From the IMG/VR virus record IMGVR_UViG_2706794698_000011: a stretch of DNA of 7,415 nt. The stretch is one strand, 5' to 3'. The notes below the pieces were generated by a model that did no database searches, was not told the origin of the DNA, and saw nothing but the letters and a program-made list of their open reading frames with translations. A program made the position numbers and the translations under genes. This document shows positions 1 through 7,415 of the stretch, piece by piece (the first letter of the stretch is position 1; every line of letters begins with the position of its first letter). Source of the DNA: a virus (taxonomy: Duplodnaviria; Heunggongvirae; Uroviricota; Caudoviricetes).

Positions 1-35
1 GGGGAATATCTCCCCGGCAGCCTTCAGGGAAAAAT

Positions 36-98
36 ATCATCAGATGGCTGCTTAAAAAAAGAACAAATGGTAGTGTCCGCTATTGCCAGTACACCTCA
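36..98. repeat. Left copy of 63-bp perfect inverted repeat (partner 7353-7415)
   Basis: Reverse complement of 7353-7415 is identical to 36-98; identity stops at pos 99 / 7352. The right copy is cut by the window end, so the repeat may be longer outward. Confidence 0.9.
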
Positions 99-297
99 TC
101 CATCACCGAAAAAAATTGGCTTTTACACCATTGGCGATAAAAGCATTTACCTGTATGACCTACGCCGCATGGATGAAATCATGGAGGCTCTTGATAATCG
201 TTCGTCGATGGATTGGTGTGTTGCTGTTCATGATATGAATGCAGGGTTTGATGAAAAGATTTTGTTCCCCTCATCAGTTGAAAGCACTGCGGGTTAA
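67..297 (+). CDS. Hypothetical small protein (76 aa)
   Basis: ORF with plausible enteric codon usage; no clear Shine-Dalgarno; first 10 codons lie inside the inverted repeat; its stop overlaps the SD of the next ORF. Confidence 0.4.
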   Translation: MVVSAIASTPHPSPKKIGFYTIGDKSIYLYDLRRMDEIMEALDNRSSMDWCVAVHDMNAGFDEKILFPSSVESTAG

Positions 298-307
298 GGA
301 GTAACAC

Positions 308-475
308 ATGACCACTATTACCAAAGAACGTATTGAATTGTTCATTAAAAACCCGCTTGAAAACGGGCTTACCCGTGGTGAACAAATGGAACTGGCACGG
401 ATTGCGCTGGCATCGCTGGAAGCAGAGCCGGTTGTGTTCTGGTTTGAAAAATATCAAGAAGGGGCTACGGCATGA
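308..475 (+). CDS. Hypothetical small protein (55 aa), paralogous to the next ORF
   Basis: ATG at 308 preceded by AGGAG (297-301); stop overlaps the next start as ATGA (472-475); shares an N-terminal MTT(I/F)T(K/R)E and an IAL(A/V)SL(E/A)AEP motif with ORF 472-816. Below the 60-aa cutoff of the ORF track. Confidence 0.55.
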
Positions 476-816
476 CGACTTTTACCAGAGAGCAGTTAAT
501 AGCTCACGCAGAGGAGACTATTGAAGCACAGAGACTGTGCATACCGGGCACAATCGACCATGACATCATCCGCACATATAAGATGGATATTGCTGTTCTG
601 GAAATCGCACTGGTATCGCTGGCAGCAGAGCCAGCCGGTAAATTGCATGAATACAAACCAGTGGGATATCAGCGTCTGGTCGATGAGTTAACCATGCTGG
701 TAAAGCAGTTAACCTGGCAACTGAGGAAAGCGAAGCCAGACTGCAAATTACCGGATAAGGCGATGAGTTATCTGGAGCGGAACGGACTGATAAGCGTGGA
801 GGATATTTTACGATGA
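472..816 (+). CDS. Hypothetical phage protein (114 aa)
   Basis: ORF in the track; start overlaps the upstream stop (ATGA); shared motif with ORF 308-475 suggests tandem duplication. Confidence 0.6.
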
Positions 817-896
817 CCTGGCCTGAAGCATTAACAACGGTAGGAATTGCGATGGCGGTGGCGCTGGTGGTGTATTCGATTTGCCGCTGGGGATAA
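813..896 (+). CDS. Putative 27-aa hydrophobic (single transmembrane-like) peptide
   Basis: ATG 813 overlaps the upstream stop (ATGA); GGAGG at 798-802; sequence [27 protein letters not shown] is mostly hydrophobic. Confidence 0.4.
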
Positions 897-903
897 AAAC
901 GGT

Positions 904-931
904 TTGCGGGAAAAGGAGAGTTAAGTAGAAT
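904..931 (+). promoter_or_regulatory. Candidate sigma70 promoter of the hok mRNA
   Basis: -35 TTGCGG (904-909), 16-nt spacer, -10 TAGAAT (926-931); predicted start near 938, giving an mRNA of about 415 nt to the terminator at 1353. Confidence 0.5.
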
Positions 932-999
932 TGCAGCGGGTGCTTGAGGCTATCTGTCTCAGGCATGAACACCAAAAGGCAGATAGAGAAAAGCCCCAG

Positions 1000-1059
1000 T
1001 TAACATTACGCGTCCGGCAAGACGCTTAACATTAATCTGAGGCTCAATCTATGAACGGC
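1000..1059 (-). ncRNA. sok: Candidate Sok-like antisense RNA (approximate ends)
   Basis: Minus-strand promoter inside mok: -35 TTGCCT (complement of 1089-1094), 17-nt spacer, -10 TAACCT (complement of 1066-1071); transcript would cover the mok start and SD; hairpin 1010-1025 on the antisense strand. Ends inferred, not measured. Confidence 0.4.
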
Positions 1060-1263
1060 AAATCTAGGTTAGCCTCTTACGTGCCGAAAGGCAAGGAGAA
1101 GCAGGCTATGAAGCAGCAAAAGGCGATGTTAATCGCCCTGATCGTCATCTGTTTAACCGTCATAGTGACGGCACTGGTAACGAGGAAAGACCTCTGCGAG
1201 GTACGAATTCGAACCGGCCAGACGGAGGTCGCTGTCTTCACAGCTTACGAACCTGAGGAGTAA
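1051..1263 (+). CDS. mok: mok-like overlapping reading frame (modulator of killing)
   Basis: 70-codon ORF whose last 51 codons are hok in the same frame; GAGG at 1039-1042; architecture matches the hok/mok/sok loci. Confidence 0.6.
   Translation: MNGKSRLASYVPKGKEKQAMKQQKAMLIALIVICLTVIVTALVTRKDLCEVRIRTGQTEVAVFTAYEPEE
1108..1263 (+). CDS. hok: Hok/Gef-family type I toxin (51 aa)
   Basis: MKQQKAMLIALIVICLTVIVTALVTRKDLCEVRIRTGQTEVAVFTAYEPEE carries the Hok signature (TM helix, TRK.LCE.R.R.G..EVA.F.AYE); AGGAG at 1094-1098. Confidence 0.9.
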   Translation: MKQQKAMLIALIVICLTVIVTALVTRKDLCEVRIRTGQTEVAVFTAYEPEE

Positions 1264-1332
1264 GAGACCAGGCGGGGGAGAAATCCCTCGCCACCTCTGA
1301 TGGGGCAGGCATCCTCAATGCACCCACACTTA

Positions 1333-1353
1333 ACCCGCTTCGGCGGGTTTTTG
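1333..1353 (+). terminator. Intrinsic terminator of the hok mRNA
   Basis: 6-bp stem ACCCGC/GCGGGT with TTCG loop followed by a T-run (1348-1360). Confidence 0.8.
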
Positions 1354-1483
1354 TTTTTATTTTCAACGCGTTTGAAGTTTTAGATGGTGCCGGAATAGAA
1401 TCAAAAATACTTAAGTAGCGCGCAGGGAGAAGAGGGATGGACCCCGAACAGGGGAGTGCTATTTATCTGGAAGGATTCTGTTG

Positions 1484-1765
1484 ATGAAAATCGAAGAATT
1501 ACGTGAAATTTTTAGTGAAGATGGCCTCTATACTGTGCGCGTTGAGAATGGCGCTATTGTCAGCCACTGCCTTCCAGACTACACAATTCTGATAATTCAG
1601 CCGTCTTTGCCAGCAGGCACGGGCGGCGCTCTCACGCATTTAAATCTGATTGGTACCAGCATCCCCCATGCACTGAAGAACAGGCCGAATGGCTCATTCA
1701 GTGTTACCGCAGGCGCGGATGCGAGGTTAAAAAAGCCCTTAGCCTCGACTACCGTCACTGGATAA
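1484..1765 (+). CDS. Hypothetical small protein (93 aa in the zero frame; possible 118-aa form ending at 1839 after a -1 shift at 1729-1735)
   Basis: ATG 1484 with AAGGA 8 nt upstream; the -1 frame is open from 1546 to a TAA at 1837-1839 that overlaps the next gene start (TAATGTG). Confidence 0.55.
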   Translation: MKIEELREIFSEDGLYTVRVENGAIVSHCLPDYTILIIQPSLPAGTGGALTHLNLIGTSIPHALKNRPNGSFSVTAGADARLKKPLASTTVTG

Positions 1766-1840
1766 TCTCCGTCAGGCTCCCTTACTCCGAACGGCCAACG
1801 CGTCCGTCCCGCACATTCCAGCAACGGATCTGGAGGTAAT

Positions 1841-2899
1841 GTGCGGGTATTACTTCGACCTGTTCTGGTACCGGAACTCGGTCTGGTTATCGTTAAGCCA
1901 GGCCGTGAATCAATGTCAGCATTCCATAACGGCAGAATACTGGTGGAGCCGGAACCAAAAAGCATGCGTAATCTGCCGTCCGGGGTCGTTCCTGCCGCTC
2001 GCCAGCCGCTGGTGGAAGACAAAACATTGCTGCCGTTTTTCAGTAACGCACGGGTGATTCGTGCTGCTGGTGGTGCTGGTGCATTGTCTGACTGGCTGTT
2101 GCGCCATATTAAATCCTGCCAGTGGCCACACGGCGATTATCATCACAGCGAAACCGTCATTCACCGTTATGGTACCGGCGCAATGGTGTTGTGCTGGCAC
2201 TGCGACAACCAGCTGCGTGACCAGACATCCGAATCACTCGAGCAACTTGCTCATCAAAACCTGTCAGCATGGATGATTGACGTCATCGGTCACGCAATAA
2301 GCGGTACGCAGGAGCGTGAATTATCTCTGGCTGAATTATCCTGGTGGGCGGTCCGCAATCAGGTGGCGGACGCGCTACCGGAAGCGGTATTACGTCGTTC
2401 GCTGGGGTTGCGTGCGGAAAAAATTCGCTCTGTGTACAGTGAAAGCGACATCATACCGGGAGAGCAGACAGCCACCAGCATACTGAAGCAGCGCACAAAA
2501 AATATTGCGTTACTGCCTCACGTCCACCAGCAACAGAACCCACCACAGGAAAAGACGGTGGTCAGCATTGCCGTTGATCCGGAGTCACCGGCTCAGTATC
2601 TCCAGCGCCAGAAATCACAACGGGAAGAGATGCCTGTATACACGCGCTGGGTAAAAACGCAGAAATGCATGACGTGTGGCAATCAGGCAGATGATCCGCA
2701 TCACATCATTGGTCATGGACTGGGAGGGATGGGAACAAAGGCTGATGATTTGTTTGTTATTCCGTTATGCCGTAAATGCCGTAACGAACTACATGCCGGA
2801 GTAAAAGATTTTGAAGAGAAACACGGCAGTCAGCTGTTGTTGCTGATTCGTTTTTTAATGCACGCGAGAAATTCGGGTGTTCTGAAGTGGAAAGCATAA
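1841..2899 (+). CDS. DUF968/NinG-like phage protein with C-terminal Cys/His (HNH or zinc-ribbon-like) cluster, 352 aa
   Basis: Long ORF with enteric codon usage; GTG 1841 preceded by GGAGG (1832-1836); C-terminus CMTCGNQADDPHHIIGHGLGGMGTKADDLFVIPLCRKCRNELH resembles the metal-binding motif of NinG/YbcO-type phage proteins. Family assignment is from memory. Confidence 0.6.
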   Translation: MRVLLRPVLVPELGLVIVKPGRESMSAFHNGRILVEPEPKSMRNLPSGVVPAARQPLVEDKTLLPFFSNARVIRAAGGAGALSDWLLRHIKSCQWPHGDYHHSETVIHRYGTGAMVLCWHCDNQLRDQTSESLEQLAHQNLSAWMIDVIGHAISGTQERELSLAELSWWAVRNQVADALPEAVLRRSLGLRAEKIRSVYSESDIIPGEQTATSILKQRTKNIALLPHVHQQQNPPQEKTVVSIAVDPESPAQYLQRQKSQREEMPVYTRWVKTQKCMTCGNQADDPHHIIGHGLGGMGTKADDLFVIPLCRKCRNELHAGVKDFEEKHGSQLLLLIRFLMHARNSGVLKWKA

Positions 2900-3280
2900 A
2901 TGACCGAGCGCATAGAATTTGTTTTACCTTACCCGCCGACGGTGAACACTTACTGGCGTCGTCGTGGCAGCACATATTTTGTATCAAAAGCCGGGGAGCG
3001 TTATCGCCGGGCAGTGGCGCTTATTGTTCGCCAGCAGCGGCTGAAATTAAGCCTGTCCGGAAGGTTGGCAATAAAAATTATTGCAGAACCACCGGATAAG
3101 CGCCGCCGTGACCTGGACAATATTCTGAAAGCGCCGCTGGATGCGCTGACGCATGCGGGGTTGCTAATGGACGATGAGCAGTTTGATGAAATCAATATCG
3201 TTCGTGCTCAGCCAGTATCTGGTGGACGTCTGGGGGTGAAGATTTATCCCATAATGCTTGAAGGGCAGGTCAAAAAATGA
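2900..3280 (+). CDS. rusA: RusA-family Holliday junction resolvase (126 aa)
   Basis: LPYPPTVN...PDKRRRDLDNILKAPLDALTHAGLLMDDEQ matches RusA conserved blocks including the catalytic acidic residues (DLDN, DD); start abuts the upstream stop. Confidence 0.85.
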   Translation: MTERIEFVLPYPPTVNTYWRRRGSTYFVSKAGERYRRAVALIVRQQRLKLSLSGRLAIKIIAEPPDKRRRDLDNILKAPLDALTHAGLLMDDEQFDEINIVRAQPVSGGRLGVKIYPIMLEGQVKK

Positions 3281-4026
3281 AACTGGAAGATTTACCGAAA
3301 TACTACTCCCCAAAATCCCCCGGCCTGACTGATGCATCGGCCTCAACGTCGAAAGATGCGCTGAGTATCACTGATGTGATGGCCGCGCAGGGCATGACAC
3401 AGAATCGGGCTGAGATGGGGGTTTCTGCGTTCCTTGGGAAAATGGGCATTAGTATGAATGACAGAGAGCGGGCAACAGAATTGCTGACAGAATATGCACT
3501 CAGTCGGTGTGATCGCGTGGCGGCGTTAAGAAAACTCCCGGCAGAAATAAAACCGGCAGTGATGCGTATTATGGCTTCGTATGCGTTTGAAGATTATGCC
3601 CGTAGCGCGGCGAGCAAAAAACANNNNNNNNNNNNNNNNNNNNNNNNNNNNNNNNNNNNNNNNNNNNNNNNNNNNNNNNNNNNNNNNNNNNNNNNNNNNN
3701 NNNNNNNNNNNNNNNNNNNNNNNNNNNNNNNNNNNNNNNNNNNNNNNNNNNNNNNNNNNNNNNNNNNNNNNNNNNNNNNNNNNNNNNNNNNNNNNNNNNN
3801 NNNNNNNNNNNNNNNNNNNNNNNNNNNNNNNNNNNNNNNNNNNNNNNNNNNNNNNNNNNNNNNNNNNNNNNNNNNNNNNNNNNNNNNNNNNATATGCGAG
3901 GTGACAAACCAGATAACACGCGCGTCATGGGAAAAAACAGTTAAGAAATTTTATGATGCGCTGGTGACCCGGTTTGATATTGAAGAAGCATGGGCTGAGC
4001 GGCAGTTAAAAAAGGTAACTAGGTAA
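3277..4026 (+). CDS. Q: Lambda-Q-family late antitermination protein (central 268 nt masked)
   Basis: N-terminus KYYSPKSPGLTD...DVMAAQGM and C-terminus KTVKKFYDALVTRFDIEE...KKVTR parallel lambda Q (FHSPKSP..., TVKPLYDALV...AVTR); ATGA overlap with rusA; frame is maintained across the mask 3624-3891. Confidence 0.8.
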   Translation: MKLEDLPKYYSPKSPGLTDASASTSKDALSITDVMAAQGMTQNRAEMGVSAFLGKMGISMNDRERATELLTEYALSRCDRVAALRKLPAEIKPAVMRIMASYAFEDYARSAASKKXXXXXXXXXXXXXXXXXXXXXXXXXXXXXXXXXXXXXXXXXXXXXXXXXXXXXXXXXXXXXXXXXXXXXXXXXXXXXXXXXXXXXXXXXXICEVTNQITRASWEKTVKKFYDALVTRFDIEEAWAERQLKKVTR

Positions 4027-4031
4027 CAAGG

Positions 4032-4059
4032 TTGATTTTTCCGGAATCTGTGGTAAATT
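4032..4059 (+). promoter_or_regulatory. Candidate late promoter (pR'-like) with probable Q-utilisation region just downstream
   Basis: -35 TTGATT (4032-4037), 16-nt spacer, extended -10 TGG-TAAATT (4051-4059), placed immediately after Q as in lambdoid phages. Confidence 0.5.
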
Positions 4060-4107
4060 CGTTATAACGATGGGCGTTTTATGCCTGACGTTAGAAGAGT
4101 TTCTACA

Positions 4108-4131
4108 ACCCGCCGCCGAGCGGGTTTTTTA
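4108..4131 (+). terminator. Intrinsic terminator (tR'-like) downstream of the late promoter
   Basis: Stem ACCCGC/GCGGGT (4108-4113 / 4120-4125) with a 6-nt loop, followed by TTTTTT. Confidence 0.75.
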
Positions 4132-4250
4132 TGACTGAAATCGCGTCAGTACAGTAAACGCGCTGGTGGCGGTGAATACCTGTCTTTCAGCTTGCTGGCT
4201 TTTTCGACAAGAGTTATTGGTGTGTCACGTTAACCGGAAAAGGAAAAGAC

Positions 4251-4448
4251 ATGCTAAAACAGCAGGATATGACAGAAACCGCCAGAGTGGTGTTTAATGA
4301 ATTAAGCGTTACCGAACCGGCGACAGTCGGGGAGATAGCGCAGAATACTTACCTTTCACGCGAACGCTGCCAGTTAATACTGACCCAGCTGGTTATGGCG
4401 GGTCTGGCAGACTATCAGTTCGGTTGTTACAGACGCCTTCCGCAGTGA
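4251..4448 (+). CDS. Small putative winged-helix DNA-binding protein (65 aa), possibly PapI/FaeA-like
   Basis: AAAGGAAAAG RBS; TVGEIAQNTYLSRERCQLILTQLVMAGLA resembles a helix-turn-helix recognition region; family resemblance is by eye only. Confidence 0.5.
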   Translation: MLKQQDMTETARVVFNELSVTEPATVGEIAQNTYLSRERCQLILTQLVMAGLADYQFGCYRRLPQ

Positions 4449-4461
4449 AGGCTTTTTTATT
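4435..4461 (+). terminator. Intrinsic terminator overlapping the stop codon of ORF 4251-4448
   Basis: Stem GCCTTC/GAAGGC (4435-4440 / 4447-4452), loop CGCAGT, followed by TTTTTTATTT. Confidence 0.75.
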
Positions 4462-4476
4462 TGTGGTAAATGGGCG

Positions 4477-4505
4477 GCTGGTGGGTGTTAGGGGCACCCA
4501 CCAGC
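4477..4505. repeat. Perfect 11-bp stem-loop carrying a Chi octamer on each arm
   Basis: GCTGGTGGGTG (4477-4487), loop TTAGGGG, CACCCACCAGC (4495-4505); no downstream T-run. Confidence 0.7.
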
Positions 4506-4858
4506 CATCTGCTCATGCGTTGGGTTCACAAGCAAACCTCAGGCCCACTGCTTTGCGCAAAAGCAGAATGAGCCTATCAGAGACAGGCTTAATGATCCAT
4601 GCTTAATANNNNNNNNNNNNNNNNNNNNNNNNNNNNNNNNNNNNNNNNNNNNNNNNNNNNNNNNNNNNNNNNNNNNNNNNNNNNNNNNNNNNNNNNNNNN
4701 NNNNNNNNNNNNNNNNNNNNNNNNNNNNNNNNNNNNNNNNNNNNNNNNNNNNNNNNNNNNNNNNNNNNNNNNNNNNNNNNNNNNNNNNNNNNNNNNNNNN
4801 NNNNNNNNNNNNNNNNNNNNNNNNNNNNNNNNNNNNNNNNNNNNNNNNNNNNNNNNNN

Positions 4859-5661
4859 CATCTGATATCGAAATCATGATGCGTGAACGCTTCAGTGTGC
4901 TGAACCATATTATCTGGGCGAAGCCGTCCGGACGCTGGAACGGATGCAACAAGGAAAGCCTGCGGGCGTATTTCCCCGCCACAGAGCGCATTCTGTTCGC
5001 GGAACATTATCAGGGGCCGTATCGTCCGAAAGATGCCGGGTATGCGGCGAAGGGCAGTGCACTGAAACAGCATGTGATGGCCCCGCTGATTTCTTACTTT
5101 CGTGATGCGCGAGCTGCCCTGGGGATAACGGCAAAACAGATTGCAGATGCCACAGGAAAGAAAAACATGGCGTCGCACTGGTTCAGTGCCGGTCAGTGGC
5201 AGTTGCCGAATGAAAGCGATTATCTGAAATTACAGGCGCTGTTTGCCCGGGTGGCAGAAGAGAAGCATCGGCGTGGTGAACTGGAAAAGCTCCACCACCA
5301 GCTGGTGGATACGTATACCTCACTGAACCGGCAGTATGCGGAGCTGCTGAGTGAATATAAACATCTGCGGCGGTATTTTGGCGTGACGGTGCAGGTGCCG
5401 TATACCGATGTGTGGACGCATAAACCGGTGCAGTTCTATCCCGGGAAACATCCGTGCGAAAAACCGGCAGAAATGCTGCAGCAGATAATCAGCGCTAGCA
5501 GTCGTCCGGGTGACCTGATTGCAGATTTTTTCATGGGGTTGGGTTCGACAGTGAAAGCGGCACTGGCGCTCGGGCGTCGTGCAATTGGCGTTGAGCTGGA
5601 GACTGAACGTTTTGAGCAGACGGTTCGGGAAGTACAGGATTTAGTCAGCCAGAACGGATGA
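4859..5661 (+). CDS. DNA amino-methyltransferase (N6-adenine/N4-cytosine type), 3' portion; N-terminus inside mask 4609-4858
   Basis: HPCEKP followed by DFFMGLGST (FxGxG AdoMet motif) near the C-terminus, the arrangement of beta-class amino-MTases; frame is open back to the mask with no start codon between 4492 and 4608, so the start is probably masked. Confidence 0.75.
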
Positions 5662-5700
5662 TATTGAAGAATTAATTACGCGTCGTTATTATGCGGCTCC

Positions 5701-5776
5701 CGGCCCTTTAGCTCAGTGGTGAGAGCGAGCGACTCATAATCGCCAGGTCGCTGGTTCAAATCCAGCAAGGGCCACC
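5701..5776 (+). tRNA. tRNA with CAU anticodon, closest by eye to tRNA-Ile2 (lysidine) of the ileX type; tRNA-Met not excluded
   Basis: Full cloverleaf can be drawn: acceptor GGCCCTT/AAGGGCC, D-arm GCTC...GAGC, anticodon loop CTCATAA, T-arm GCTGG-TTCAAAT-CCAGC, 3' ACCA. Confidence 0.85.
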
Positions 5777-5783
5777 ATCACAT

Positions 5784-5818
5784 ACCGCCATTAGCTCATC
5801 AGGAAAGAGCGCCAGCCT
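5784..5818 (+). tRNA. Probable 5' part of a second tRNA running into mask 5819-6068
   Basis: TAGCTC D-stem with GAGC partner (5793-5796 / 5806-5809), then CCAGC-CT consistent with an anticodon stem and C32-U33; anticodon masked. Confidence 0.35.
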
Positions 5819-6148
5819 NNNNNNNNNNNNNNNNNNNNNNNNNNNNNNNNNNNNNNNNNNNNNNNNNNNNNNNNNNNNNNNNNNNNNNNNNNNNNNNNNN
5901 NNNNNNNNNNNNNNNNNNNNNNNNNNNNNNNNNNNNNNNNNNNNNNNNNNNNNNNNNNNNNNNNNNNNNNNNNNNNNNNNNNNNNNNNNNNNNNNNNNNN
6001 NNNNNNNNNNNNNNNNNNNNNNNNNNNNNNNNNNNNNNNNNNNNNNNNNNNNNNNNNNNNNNNNNNNNTTTTAAATACTTCACAATTCAGGCGGTTGACT
6101 GTTGTCTGGTTTGCGGGGAGTTTGTTAAAAGAAACTGGCATGGTGAAT

Positions 6149-6292
6149 CCCCCTGTGCGGAGGGGCAATCAGCGAGTAGGTATATGGGATAATCGCGGAT
6201 TCAGGTGCTGGTACTGAATTCACCGGGAGGCACCCGGCATCATGCAATGGCACATAGCGCCACTCTCCAGCCCTCTCCGGAGGGGCTTTTCT
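6149..6292 (+). other. GC-rich hairpin-dense non-coding stretch (candidate structured RNA or regulatory leader)
   Basis: Four local hairpins (6150-6165, 6197-6221, 6223-6237, 6270-6286), the last followed by CTTTTCT; no ORF over 30 codons on either strand. Confidence 0.3.
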
Positions 6293-6681
6293 GTGCCGGA
6301 TACATCACAGTTTCTGGAACCTTAGGTACTACAGTATCAGTCAGGGTGCTATATTTTCAGATGTGATGAAAGCCTGTCAGCAGGCAGGGCGTATCGGAAA
6401 TGACCCAGTAGAGAAAACNNNNNNNNNNNNNNNNNNNNNNNNNNNNNNNNNNNNNNNNNNNNNNNNNNNNNNNNNNNNNNNNNNNNNNNNNNNNNNNNNN
6501 NNNNNNNNNNNNNNNNNNNNNNNNNNNNNNNNNNNNNNNNNNNNNNNNNNNNNNNNNNNNNNNNNNNNNNNNNNNNNNNNNNNNNNNNNNNNNNNNNNNN
6601 NNNNNNNNNNNNNNNNNNNNNNNNNNNNNNNNNNNNNNNNNNNNNNNNNNNNNNNNNNNNNNNNNNNNNNNNNNNNNNNNN

Positions 6682-6981
6682 TTGCAGAGTGCAACGGTTA
6701 TTAAAGCATTCATTCAATACGTTATCTGTATTTGTAGGGCATTCCTGGCTATTTTTGATTGAATTCCAGAATGTTTTATTGAATGGTACTACGTTGTAAA
6801 TGGTTACAGGTAGCACTTTGTTATTGAGCATGATGCCTGTGTGAGTCAGTGTAAATATACTTTCAGGAGGTAAGAAAGCATCCGATTGATACCAGATTAT
6901 TAATTTTATTTTACTCCATATGACTGAAAAAGATATTCCGCATGATGGCTGGATAACTGTATCAATCACAATCCACTTCAT
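6682..6981 (-). CDS. AT-rich hypothetical protein (at least 100 aa visible; 3' part enters mask 6419-6681)
   Basis: ATG at 6981 with AAGGAAAC SD (complement of 6985-6992); about 35 percent GC versus over 50 percent around it; AT-biased codons (ATA, AAA, TTA, AAT); uninterrupted 100-codon ORF in AT-rich DNA. Confidence 0.6.
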
Positions 6982-7243
6982 TTAGTTTCCTTNNNNNNNN
7001 NNNNNNNNNNNNNNNNNNNNNNNNNNNNNNNNNNNNNNNNNNNNNNNNNNNNNNNNNNNNNNNNNNNNNNNNNNNNNNNNNNNNNNNNNNNNNNNNNNNN
7101 NNNNNNNNNNNNNNNNNNNNNNNNNNNNNNNNNNNNNNNNNNNNNNNNNNNNNNNNNNNNNNNNNNNNNNNNNNNNNNNNNNNNNNNNNNNNNNNNNNNN
7201 NNNNNNNNNNNNNNNNNNNNNNNNNNNNNNNNNNNNNNNNNNT

Positions 7244-7399
7244 GATGTTGTCAGGGCGGCGCCGCCGTCAGATCTTGCGGAAAAGCTGACACATAAACTG
7301 AAAGAGGGCTGGCAGCCGTTTGGTAGTCCGGTGGCCATAACCCCTTATACCCTGAGGTGTACTGGCAATAGCGGACACTACCATTTGTTCTTTTTTTAA
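7244..7399 (+). CDS. 3' end of a hypothetical protein (5' part inside mask 6993-7242)
   Basis: Open frame from the mask edge to TAA 7397-7399 with enteric codon usage (...KLKEGWQPFGSPVAITPYTLRCTGNSGHYHLFFF); the last 14 codons lie in the inverted repeat. Confidence 0.5.
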   Translation, partial: DVVRAAPPSDLAEKLTHKLKEGWQPFGSPVAITPYTLRCTGNSGHYHLFFF

Positions 7400-7415
7400 G
7401 CAGCCATCTGATGAT
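7353..7415. repeat. Right copy of 63-bp perfect inverted repeat (partner 36-98)
   Basis: Exact reverse-complement match to 36-98; contains the last 14 codons and stop of the + strand ORF ending at 7399. Confidence 0.9.

Follow-up and report, generated by a model that had tools for sequence, protein, structure and literature searches.

Escherichia coli O104:H4 C227-11 carries M.EcoGII and its paralogue M.EcoGI, and M.EcoGII is a non-specific beta-class N6-adenine methyltransferase (Murray et al. 2018, PMC5778455). M.EcoGII modifies adenine whatever the surrounding sequence, in DNA and, more weakly, in RNA (PMC5778455, PMC11551740). Both enzymes are silent in the lysogen, M.EcoGII is deleterious if constitutively expressed, and the two belong to a large E. 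coli prophage family, with a very similar enzyme carried by phage 1720a-02 (PMC5778455). A study of O111 STEC places homologues with about 93% similarity to M.EcoGI/GII among the 'nonspecific' orphan methyltransferases and detected no further methylated motif in growing lysogens (PMC6602927). M.EcoGII has also been engineered as a methylation tool (PMC5778455, PMC11551740). A predicted structure of M.EcoGII has been published as well. Here we analyse a partly readable methyltransferase gene on a contig of 7415 bp, the whole of which we call the window. With high confidence, the gene is best explained as an orphan beta-class N6-adenine methyltransferase of the M.EcoGI/M.EcoGII family, borne by a prophage, that would be expressed late under the control of Q and would serve an anti-restriction role. 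The kind of gene is already known, down to its family and likely activity, and the window copy of this familiar prophage gene is an ordinary one. Of 5426 complete E. coli genomes, 1992 contain the methyltransferase gene, as do 247 phage records, the majority from Stx-converting phages; since most Stx-converting phages and more than a third of the complete E. coli genomes carry a member of the family, the copy has little discovery value.

The window is the entire contig CWUY01000202.1 of Shigella sonnei assembly GCA_001260435.1, N runs included. Its ends (36-98 and 7353-7415) form a perfect 63-nt inverted repeat that matches the end of IS600. Since IS600 ends lie at both termini, the window is a contig assembled from short reads, part of a lambdoid prophage remnant and broken off at IS copies, and the setting of the methyltransferase gene is a lambdoid, Stx-phage-like prophage remnant of S. 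sonnei. No lysis, structural or toxin genes are visible on this IS600-bounded contig. The features on which the argument draws are collected in Table 1. Although the Q gene is interrupted by an N run, its identity is supported by a 99.9%-identical relative (L096), whose full-length 273-aa product matches Pfam PF03589 'Antitermination protein Q' at 1.6e-53, and by RefSeq relatives, where the gene is labelled 'antitermination protein'. The tRNA gene 3' of the methyltransferase is called tRNA-Met(CAT) by ARAGORN and scores 72.5 bits against the Rfam tRNA model, whereas its equivalent in RefSeq relatives is labelled tRNA-Ile and is followed by two tRNA-Arg genes. Only the beginning of a second tRNA is present in the window. 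Beyond the tRNAs come an STnc100-like sRNA, an IraM-like gene on the minus strand and the IS600 end.

Table 1. Features of the window around the methyltransferase gene (positions are those of the 7415-bp contig).
Feature	Position	Strand	Remarks
Hok + Sok RNA			lambdoid context
DUF968 protein	1841-2899		match to the putative HNH nuclease model HNHc_6, E=1.9e-06, barely above the cut-off
RusA	2900-3280
Q-type late antiterminator gene	3277-4026	+	interrupted by N run 3624-3891
pR'-like late promoter	4032-4074	+	TTGATT 4032-4037, 16-nt spacer, TAAATT 4054-4059, AACGATGGG 4066-4074
First intrinsic-terminator-like hairpin and T run (tR'-like)	4107-4132 (hairpin 4107-4126)	+	AACCCGCCGCCGAGCGGGTT followed by TTTTTATGACT; 7 pairs, 5 of them G-C
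Small conserved ORF (65 aa)	4251-4448	+	possible winged-helix protein
Second terminator-like hairpin and T run	4435-4458 (hairpin 4435-4452)	+	GCCTTCCGCAGTGAAGGC followed by TTTTTTATTT; overlaps the end of the small ORF
Methyltransferase gene, visible start	4599-4608	+	ATG CTT AAT A = M L N ...
Run of 250 N	4609-4858	+	hides about residues 4-86 (about 83 codons), including the DPPY equivalent 4701-4712
Methyltransferase gene, visible C-terminal three quarters	4859-5661	+	rest of the catalytic Rossmann domain, helical HTH target-recognition domain, motif I, stop
tRNA, anticodon CAT	5702-5777	+	first of the phage tRNA cluster 3' of the methyltransferase

A sequence-only reading of this DNA had identified the gene as a beta-class amino-methyltransferase from the motifs HPCEKP and DFFMGLGST near its C-terminus. 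We confirmed the open reading frame and both motifs: positions 4861-5658 translate on the plus strand to 266 residues without a stop, ahead of a TGA at 5659-5661. Positions 5449-5466 encode HPCEKP and positions 5524-5550 encode DFFMGLGST, corresponding to residues 283-288 and 308-316 of 352-aa homologues, and the latter is the AdoMet-binding motif I (FxGxG). The 266 residues match Pfam PF01555 N6_N4_Mtase far beyond chance (E=4.8e-26, 92.5 bits against a cut-off of 26.7), and the PADLOC MTase_II model PDLC03265 matches residues 1-348 of the reconstructed protein at 3.8e-162. Sequence matches in the PDB are to beta-class enzymes only, and motif I aligns with motif I of CcrM, MboIIA, DpnA and TTHA0409. 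The class assignment thus stands, since every match in Pfam, PADLOC and the PDB is to beta-class enzymes and motif I lies C-terminally. The same reading held that the N-terminus is masked, and the N run lies where it was placed; what had been overlooked is the start codon upstream of it, ATG at 4599. The ten nucleotides ATGCTTAATA at 4599-4608 encode M-L-N-(T) and are the same as the first 10 nt of homologous 1059-nt (352-aa) genes, as judged against those of an E. coli O121 prophage and of IMG/VR relatives. By homology, the methyltransferase is predicted to be 352 aa long, with the catalytic DPPY motif in its N-terminal part, a helical HTH domain for nucleic-acid binding in the centre and, towards the C-terminus, the AdoMet-binding loop (HPCEKP ... 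DFFMGLGST).

Over its visible part, the protein shows 91% identity to M.EcoGII as printed in the supplement of PMC11551740. Against the 349-aa L053 protein, the identity is 92.0% over 262 residues aligned without gaps; the L053 protein in turn matches the printed M.EcoGII at 98.3%, with residual differences that resemble text-recognition errors. Differences from M.EcoGII fall at 21 of the 262 visible residues, and in the alignment of the HTH/central domain at 8 of about 78. At the nucleotide level, the gene of phage 1720a-02, which is match H17 in our search, is 93.5% identical to that of the window. Most PF01555 enzymes are motif-specific, including the PDB relatives CcrM (GANTC) and M.RsrI (GAATTC). 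Solved enzymes of the CcrM, M.RsrI, M.MboIIA and DpnA type act at defined motifs. A sequence-specific orphan methyltransferase with its own target motif and an epigenetic or regulatory role would fit this general pattern, and the central domain does contain an HTH with the 8 substitutions mentioned above. We nevertheless consider such an enzyme improbable here. The ungapped 92% identity to M.EcoGII includes the recognition domain, and the homologues of about 93% similarity are classed as nonspecific, with no additional motif detected (PMC6602927). The site of the gene behind pR' and terminators, described below, further argues against the expression in growing cells that an epigenetic regulator needs. 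Non-specific adenine methylation, which within the family is established for M.EcoGII alone, would therefore be the activity to expect of the window allele. Because the tested family member methylates any adenine, a methylome search for a target motif would probably find none.

We also asked what stands beside the gene. In annotated relatives (Stx2a-converting phages, phiP27, and the E. coli O121 and TUM10008 prophages), the core order is DUF968, RusA, Q, a small ORF, 'DNA methylase', tRNA-Ile, tRNA-Arg and tRNA-Arg, followed by stx or lysis genes. Across the E. coli genomes and phage records, the methyltransferase gene is always positioned between Q and the tRNAs, stx or lysis genes. No endonuclease lies beside the methylase in the annotated relatives, where its neighbours are Q, the 65-aa ORF and the tRNAs. 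In the window, no visible ORF except the methylase matches a PADLOC defence model. We did not find the adjacent cognate endonuclease of a Type II restriction-modification system; the only Pfam nuclease match is that of the DUF968 protein to HNHc_6, 1.7 kb upstream and in a separate transcription unit. The gene had been proposed to be an orphan with no restriction partner, and this holds for the visible ORFs of the window and for the annotated relatives alike.

It is extremely unlikely that the gene supplies the modification activity of a restriction-modification system, with its endonuclease either concealed by an N run or represented by the DUF968/HNH protein. The HNHc_6 match of that protein (Table 1) and the partly unreadable state of the window speak for such a partner. 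However, the N run that adjoins the methyltransferase covers the gene's own 5' part, and fully sequenced annotated relatives have no endonuclease among the neighbours. RusA, Q, a promoter and two terminators separate DUF968 from the methyltransferase, and DUF968 gives no PADLOC match. On the strength of gene order and the lack of a defence-model match, we rejected the DUF968/HNH protein as a restriction partner.

The sequence-only reading had assigned the gene to the late region, and its location downstream of Q and of a lambda-like pR' bears this out. The TTGATT of the pR'-like site begins six bases past the Q stop codon. In an alignment with lambda 44499-44629, the -35 element (TTGACT in lambda), the -10 element (TAAATT) and AACGATGGG line up ungapped. 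A consensus promoter scan did not list the site, which has 8/12 matches. We take AACGATGGG to be the promoter-proximal pause element at which Q loads, as in lambda. By analogy with lambda, the segment 4032-4074 would act as promoter and pause site. Two terminator-like hairpins follow it, and the methyltransferase start at 4599 lies about 530 nt 3' of the promoter-like site, beyond both of them. The methyltransferase would thus be the first sizeable gene of a Q-dependent late transcript. With pR' and two terminators between Q and the gene, it is therefore expected to be silent in the lysogen and to be read only after Q read-through; silence during lysogenic growth is suggested by the position of pR' and the hairpins.

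We propose the following role for the enzyme. On induction, Q-modified polymerase would read through the terminators, and the enzyme, produced late, would methylate adenines across replicating phage DNA shortly before packaging. In the next host, packaged genomes would then be shielded against many adenine-sensitive restriction systems. Bulk m6A modification of phage DNA is the most likely role, by analogy, because M.EcoGII methylates any adenine and harms cells that express it constitutively. The placement of pR' and the terminators would offer a simple, testable account of how a lysogen tolerates a harmful enzyme. This placement also fits the published silence in the lysogen and the harm from constitutive expression. 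On an IS600-bounded fragment without lysis or structural genes, the anti-restriction role may no longer operate.

What lies within the N run at 4609-4858 can be judged from relatives. We searched viral contigs with a pattern scan that used the two flanks of the run as anchors, and recovered more than 120 loci. The same flanks enclose exactly 246 nt in all 125 related copies, in contrast to the 250 N of the window, and this 246-nt stretch encodes ...LIVTDPPYFKV... Ten IMG/VR loci carry the window's own GLG allele of motif I. All ten encode one identical, intact 352-aa protein (P0121), and the best-matching of them is 99.7-100% identical to the window in the visible segments. DPPY is found at residues 35-38 in each of the ten, whose flanks are 99.7-100% identical, a site equivalent to 4701-4712 of the window; it is also present in 104 of 120 cluster representatives. 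At least 997 contigs carry P0121, under the name MULTISPECIES [Shigella], and the window protein is one residue apart from it (KKNMVSHWF to KKNMASHWF). The expectation that a DPPY-type motif lies inside 4609-4858 agrees with all ten of the relatives closest in the flanks, and for the window copy its presence there is well supported by homology.

We next consider the integrity of this copy. The gene could be dead, through a lesion in the N run or because the GLG allele is inactive, and be passive cargo of a decaying, IS-bounded remnant, which we regard as unlikely though far from negligible. Such a reading bears on function alone and leaves family membership untouched. Taken literally, 250 N against 246 nt in 125/125 relatives is a +1 frame shift that puts the ATG at 4599 out of frame with 4861. 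However, all five N runs of the window differ in length from relatives with 98-100% identical flanks (268 vs 340, 250 vs 246, 250 vs 169 or 789, 263 vs 403, and 250 vs 266), while 5300 visible nt contain zero indels between the window and L096. Because five indels coinciding exactly with five N runs are not credible, the run lengths are arbitrary. We thus reject a frameshift drawn from N-run length and regard the run lengths of the window as unfit for reading-frame arguments. A 4-nt insertion argued from a Shigella boydii protein (P0002; 343 aa, MESLPADCLEF...) was likewise rejected, since this protein is nine codons shorter in the same frame and reflects an alternative start.

The deposited protein CSI18697.1, 'DNA methylase [Shigella sonnei]', covers only the C-terminal 261 aa, from 4876 onwards, and could be read as a truncation. 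No gene is called across any N run of the contig, with Q, IraM and the methylase N-terminus all uncalled, and the 261-aa call begins at the first ATG past the run, as gene callers do at gaps. This call is therefore no proof of truncation and is best explained as a gap artefact rather than as pseudogene evidence. Shortened products do occur in the family: about 15% of the related copies in the fetched loci give them, some being cut by locus ends, and S. sonnei, which has several copies of the gene, includes a truncated one for which 35 contigs have a call of the C-terminal 164 aa. IS600 ends also flank the prophage fragment, which is in keeping with decay. Against this, all ten nearest relatives are intact, and on this homology we infer that the window copy is probably intact as well. 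The chance that it is non-functional is modest, on the order of a minor but real risk.

One substitution deserves separate mention. The motif-I loop reads G-S-G in all 117 motif-bearing cluster representatives and G-L-G in the window and its Shigella relatives, and this Ser-to-Leu change, absent from every one of the 117, counts in favour of a dead gene. The aligned position is G-V-G in CcrM, a well-studied and active enzyme, and G-T-G in TTHA0409, which argues that a hydrophobic residue is tolerated in the fold. Ser-to-Leu as an inactivating change is thus unsupported, with Val in CcrM and Thr in TTHA0409 at the same place. The substitution could suggest attenuation, yet it is not clearly damaging. 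It is very unlikely that the Shigella allele differs from M.EcoGII in its behaviour, either with Ser-to-Leu as a selected attenuation of a toxic enzyme or through a partnership with the 65-aa ORF.

The 65-aa ORF is among the gene calls of the deposited contig and of relatives, and the phiP27 RefSeq record labels it 'TrmB family transcriptional regulator'. Pfam, NCBIfam and PADLOC gave no match for it. Lambda orf-64 occupies the same position, but we found no homology between the two and rejected the ORF as its homologue. The ORF accompanies only a subset of the methyltransferases, being present in 23 phage records compared with 247 that have the methyltransferase gene. A Dam-like Stx-phage methyltransferase acts with a PNB-2 subunit on 16S rRNA (PMC10810198). 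By analogy, the 65-aa protein might be a PNB-2-like targeting or regulatory subunit that directs the enzyme to specific DNA or RNA, for example the downstream tRNAs. The adjacency of the two genes is what suggests this partnership. The Dam-like (GATC) enzyme, M.EcoPA8orf6770P, is likewise an adenine methyltransferase of a STEC prophage with a small winged-helix ORF just upstream (PMC10810198). In contrast to the window enzyme, it belongs to a different family, annotated as GATC N6-adenine methyltransferases, and its locus is close to the left end of the prophage. The searches that we ran found no homology between the two, and we rejected the 16S rRNA methyltransferase as the same gene on the grounds of its Dam-like family and other locus.

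Among solved structures, CcrM (6pbd), M.RsrI (1eg2), M.MboIIA (1g60), DpnA (5hek) and the 8urk/9c3u 'Methyltransferase' share the catalytic Rossmann domain with the window protein. Matches to these beta-class enzymes cover the DPPY region and motif I (E=1e-14 to 1e-25), and the two halves of the catalytic domain are all that aligns; the central domain of about 140 residues has no sequence match in the PDB. Closer are the 'DNA methylase' genes of E. coli prophages and of Stx phages, including Stx2a phages such as Stx2_95, 1720a-02 and phiP27, which have 83-97% nucleotide identity to the window gene and the same gene order. In Stx phages, stx and lysis genes come after the tRNAs, whereas the window has the STnc100-like sRNA, the IraM-like gene and the IS600 end instead. 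M.EcoGII is a protein of 349 aa (ending ...DLIV), in contrast to the 352 aa of the window family protein (...DLVSQNG), and among the substitutions of the window relative to it are Ser-to-Leu in motif I and several within the HTH domain. In their first 100 residues, the window's nearest relatives are identical to M.EcoGII, and the predicted full-length window protein and M.EcoGII, both prophage-borne orphans, share the order of DPPY, central recognition domain and FxGxG.

The window is the whole (1-7415) of contig CWUY01000202.1 from the Shigella sonnei assembly GCA_001260435.1, and five N runs interrupt it. At these places, in order, near-identical relatives carry 340, 246, 169 or 789, 403 and 266 nt, so that 0 of the five lengths agrees with the window. 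None of the deposited gene calls of the contig spans any of the five runs. By comparison with these relatives, the N runs look like gaps whose lengths were set arbitrarily, and arguments from frame or length should therefore not rest on them.

The methyltransferase module occurs twice within 9 kb in the related IMG/VR locus L124 (4017-4976 and 6388-7347), with both copies 99.9% identical to the window, showing that some genomes hold more than one copy of the module. This multiplicity is a likely cause of the gaps in the short-read assembly. Partial calls of the methyltransferase gene are also numerous in S. sonnei records (proteins P0137, P0136 and P0143), and a 164-aa piece that starts at the Met of the KKNMVSHWF stretch is found on 35 S. 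sonnei contigs, including one 4.78-Mb genome. Truncated copies thus exist in this species alongside the intact 352-aa allele.

At its ends, the window carries a perfect inverted repeat of 63 nt whose sequence corresponds to an IS600 end. The prophage fragment is thus flanked either by IS600 copies in opposite orientation or by contig breaks at such copies.

Coordinates of features in the window and the evidence for each
Feature	Position	Strand	Description
Inverted repeat, 63 nt	36-98 and 7353-7415		Perfect; window ends; matches end of IS600
hok/sok module	938-1263	+	Type I toxin-antitoxin
sok RNA	938-1113	+	Rfam match, 112 bits
Hok-family ORF	1051-1263	+	Pfam 3e-23
DUF968 gene	1841-2899	+	
N run	3624-3891		268 nt
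Conserved 65-aa ORF	4251-4448	+	Directly upstream of methyltransferase
Inverted repeat, 12 bp	GGCTGGTGGGTG 4476-4487, CACCCACCAGCC 4495-4506	+	Perfect; 7-nt loop
N run	4609-4858		250 nt
Sigma-70-like promoter match	5664-5692	+	TTGAAG, 17-nt spacer, TATTAT
Second tRNA (Arg in relatives)	start ~5785	+	Interrupted by N run 5819-6068
N run	5819-6068		250 nt
STnc100 sRNA family	6109-6298	+	Rfam; full-length, 122.5 bits vs gathering score 47
N run	6419-6681		263 nt
IraM-like anti-adapter protein ORF	6682-6981	-	First 100 residues; NCBIfam NF007393, 3.5e-42
N run	6993-7242		250 nt

Among the other genes, the sok RNA and the Hok-family ORF, which is uncalled in the deposited contig annotation, together form a type I toxin-antitoxin module. 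The DUF968 protein also matches HNHc_6, a model for putative HNH nucleases, at E=1.9e-06 (28 bits; cut-off 26.6). Its gene is a conserved nin-region member of these prophages, and we rejected it as a methyltransferase partner.

Downstream of the methyltransferase, the single sigma-70-like promoter match in 3900-5830 comes after the methyltransferase stop codon and ahead of the first tRNA. This tRNA has the anticodon CAT; it is assigned to Met by ARAGORN and annotated as Ile in RefSeq relatives. The STnc100 match is located 3' of the tRNA cluster. Further along, the IraM-like ORF continues into N run 6419-6681; a 210-aa ORF that spans the same run in the mechanical ORF listing was discarded as an artefact of the Ns.

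In the leader, the 12-bp inverted repeat lies downstream of the second terminator-like hairpin and ahead of the methyltransferase start; it is not followed by a T run. A profile search of the conserved 65-aa ORF found no match, and the ORF has no similarity to lambda orf-64, which occupies the equivalent position. It is present in 23 phage records, compared with 247 for the methyltransferase, and in the RefSeq record of phiP27, a relative with the same gene order around the methyltransferase, it is labeled a TrmB-family (winged-helix) regulator.
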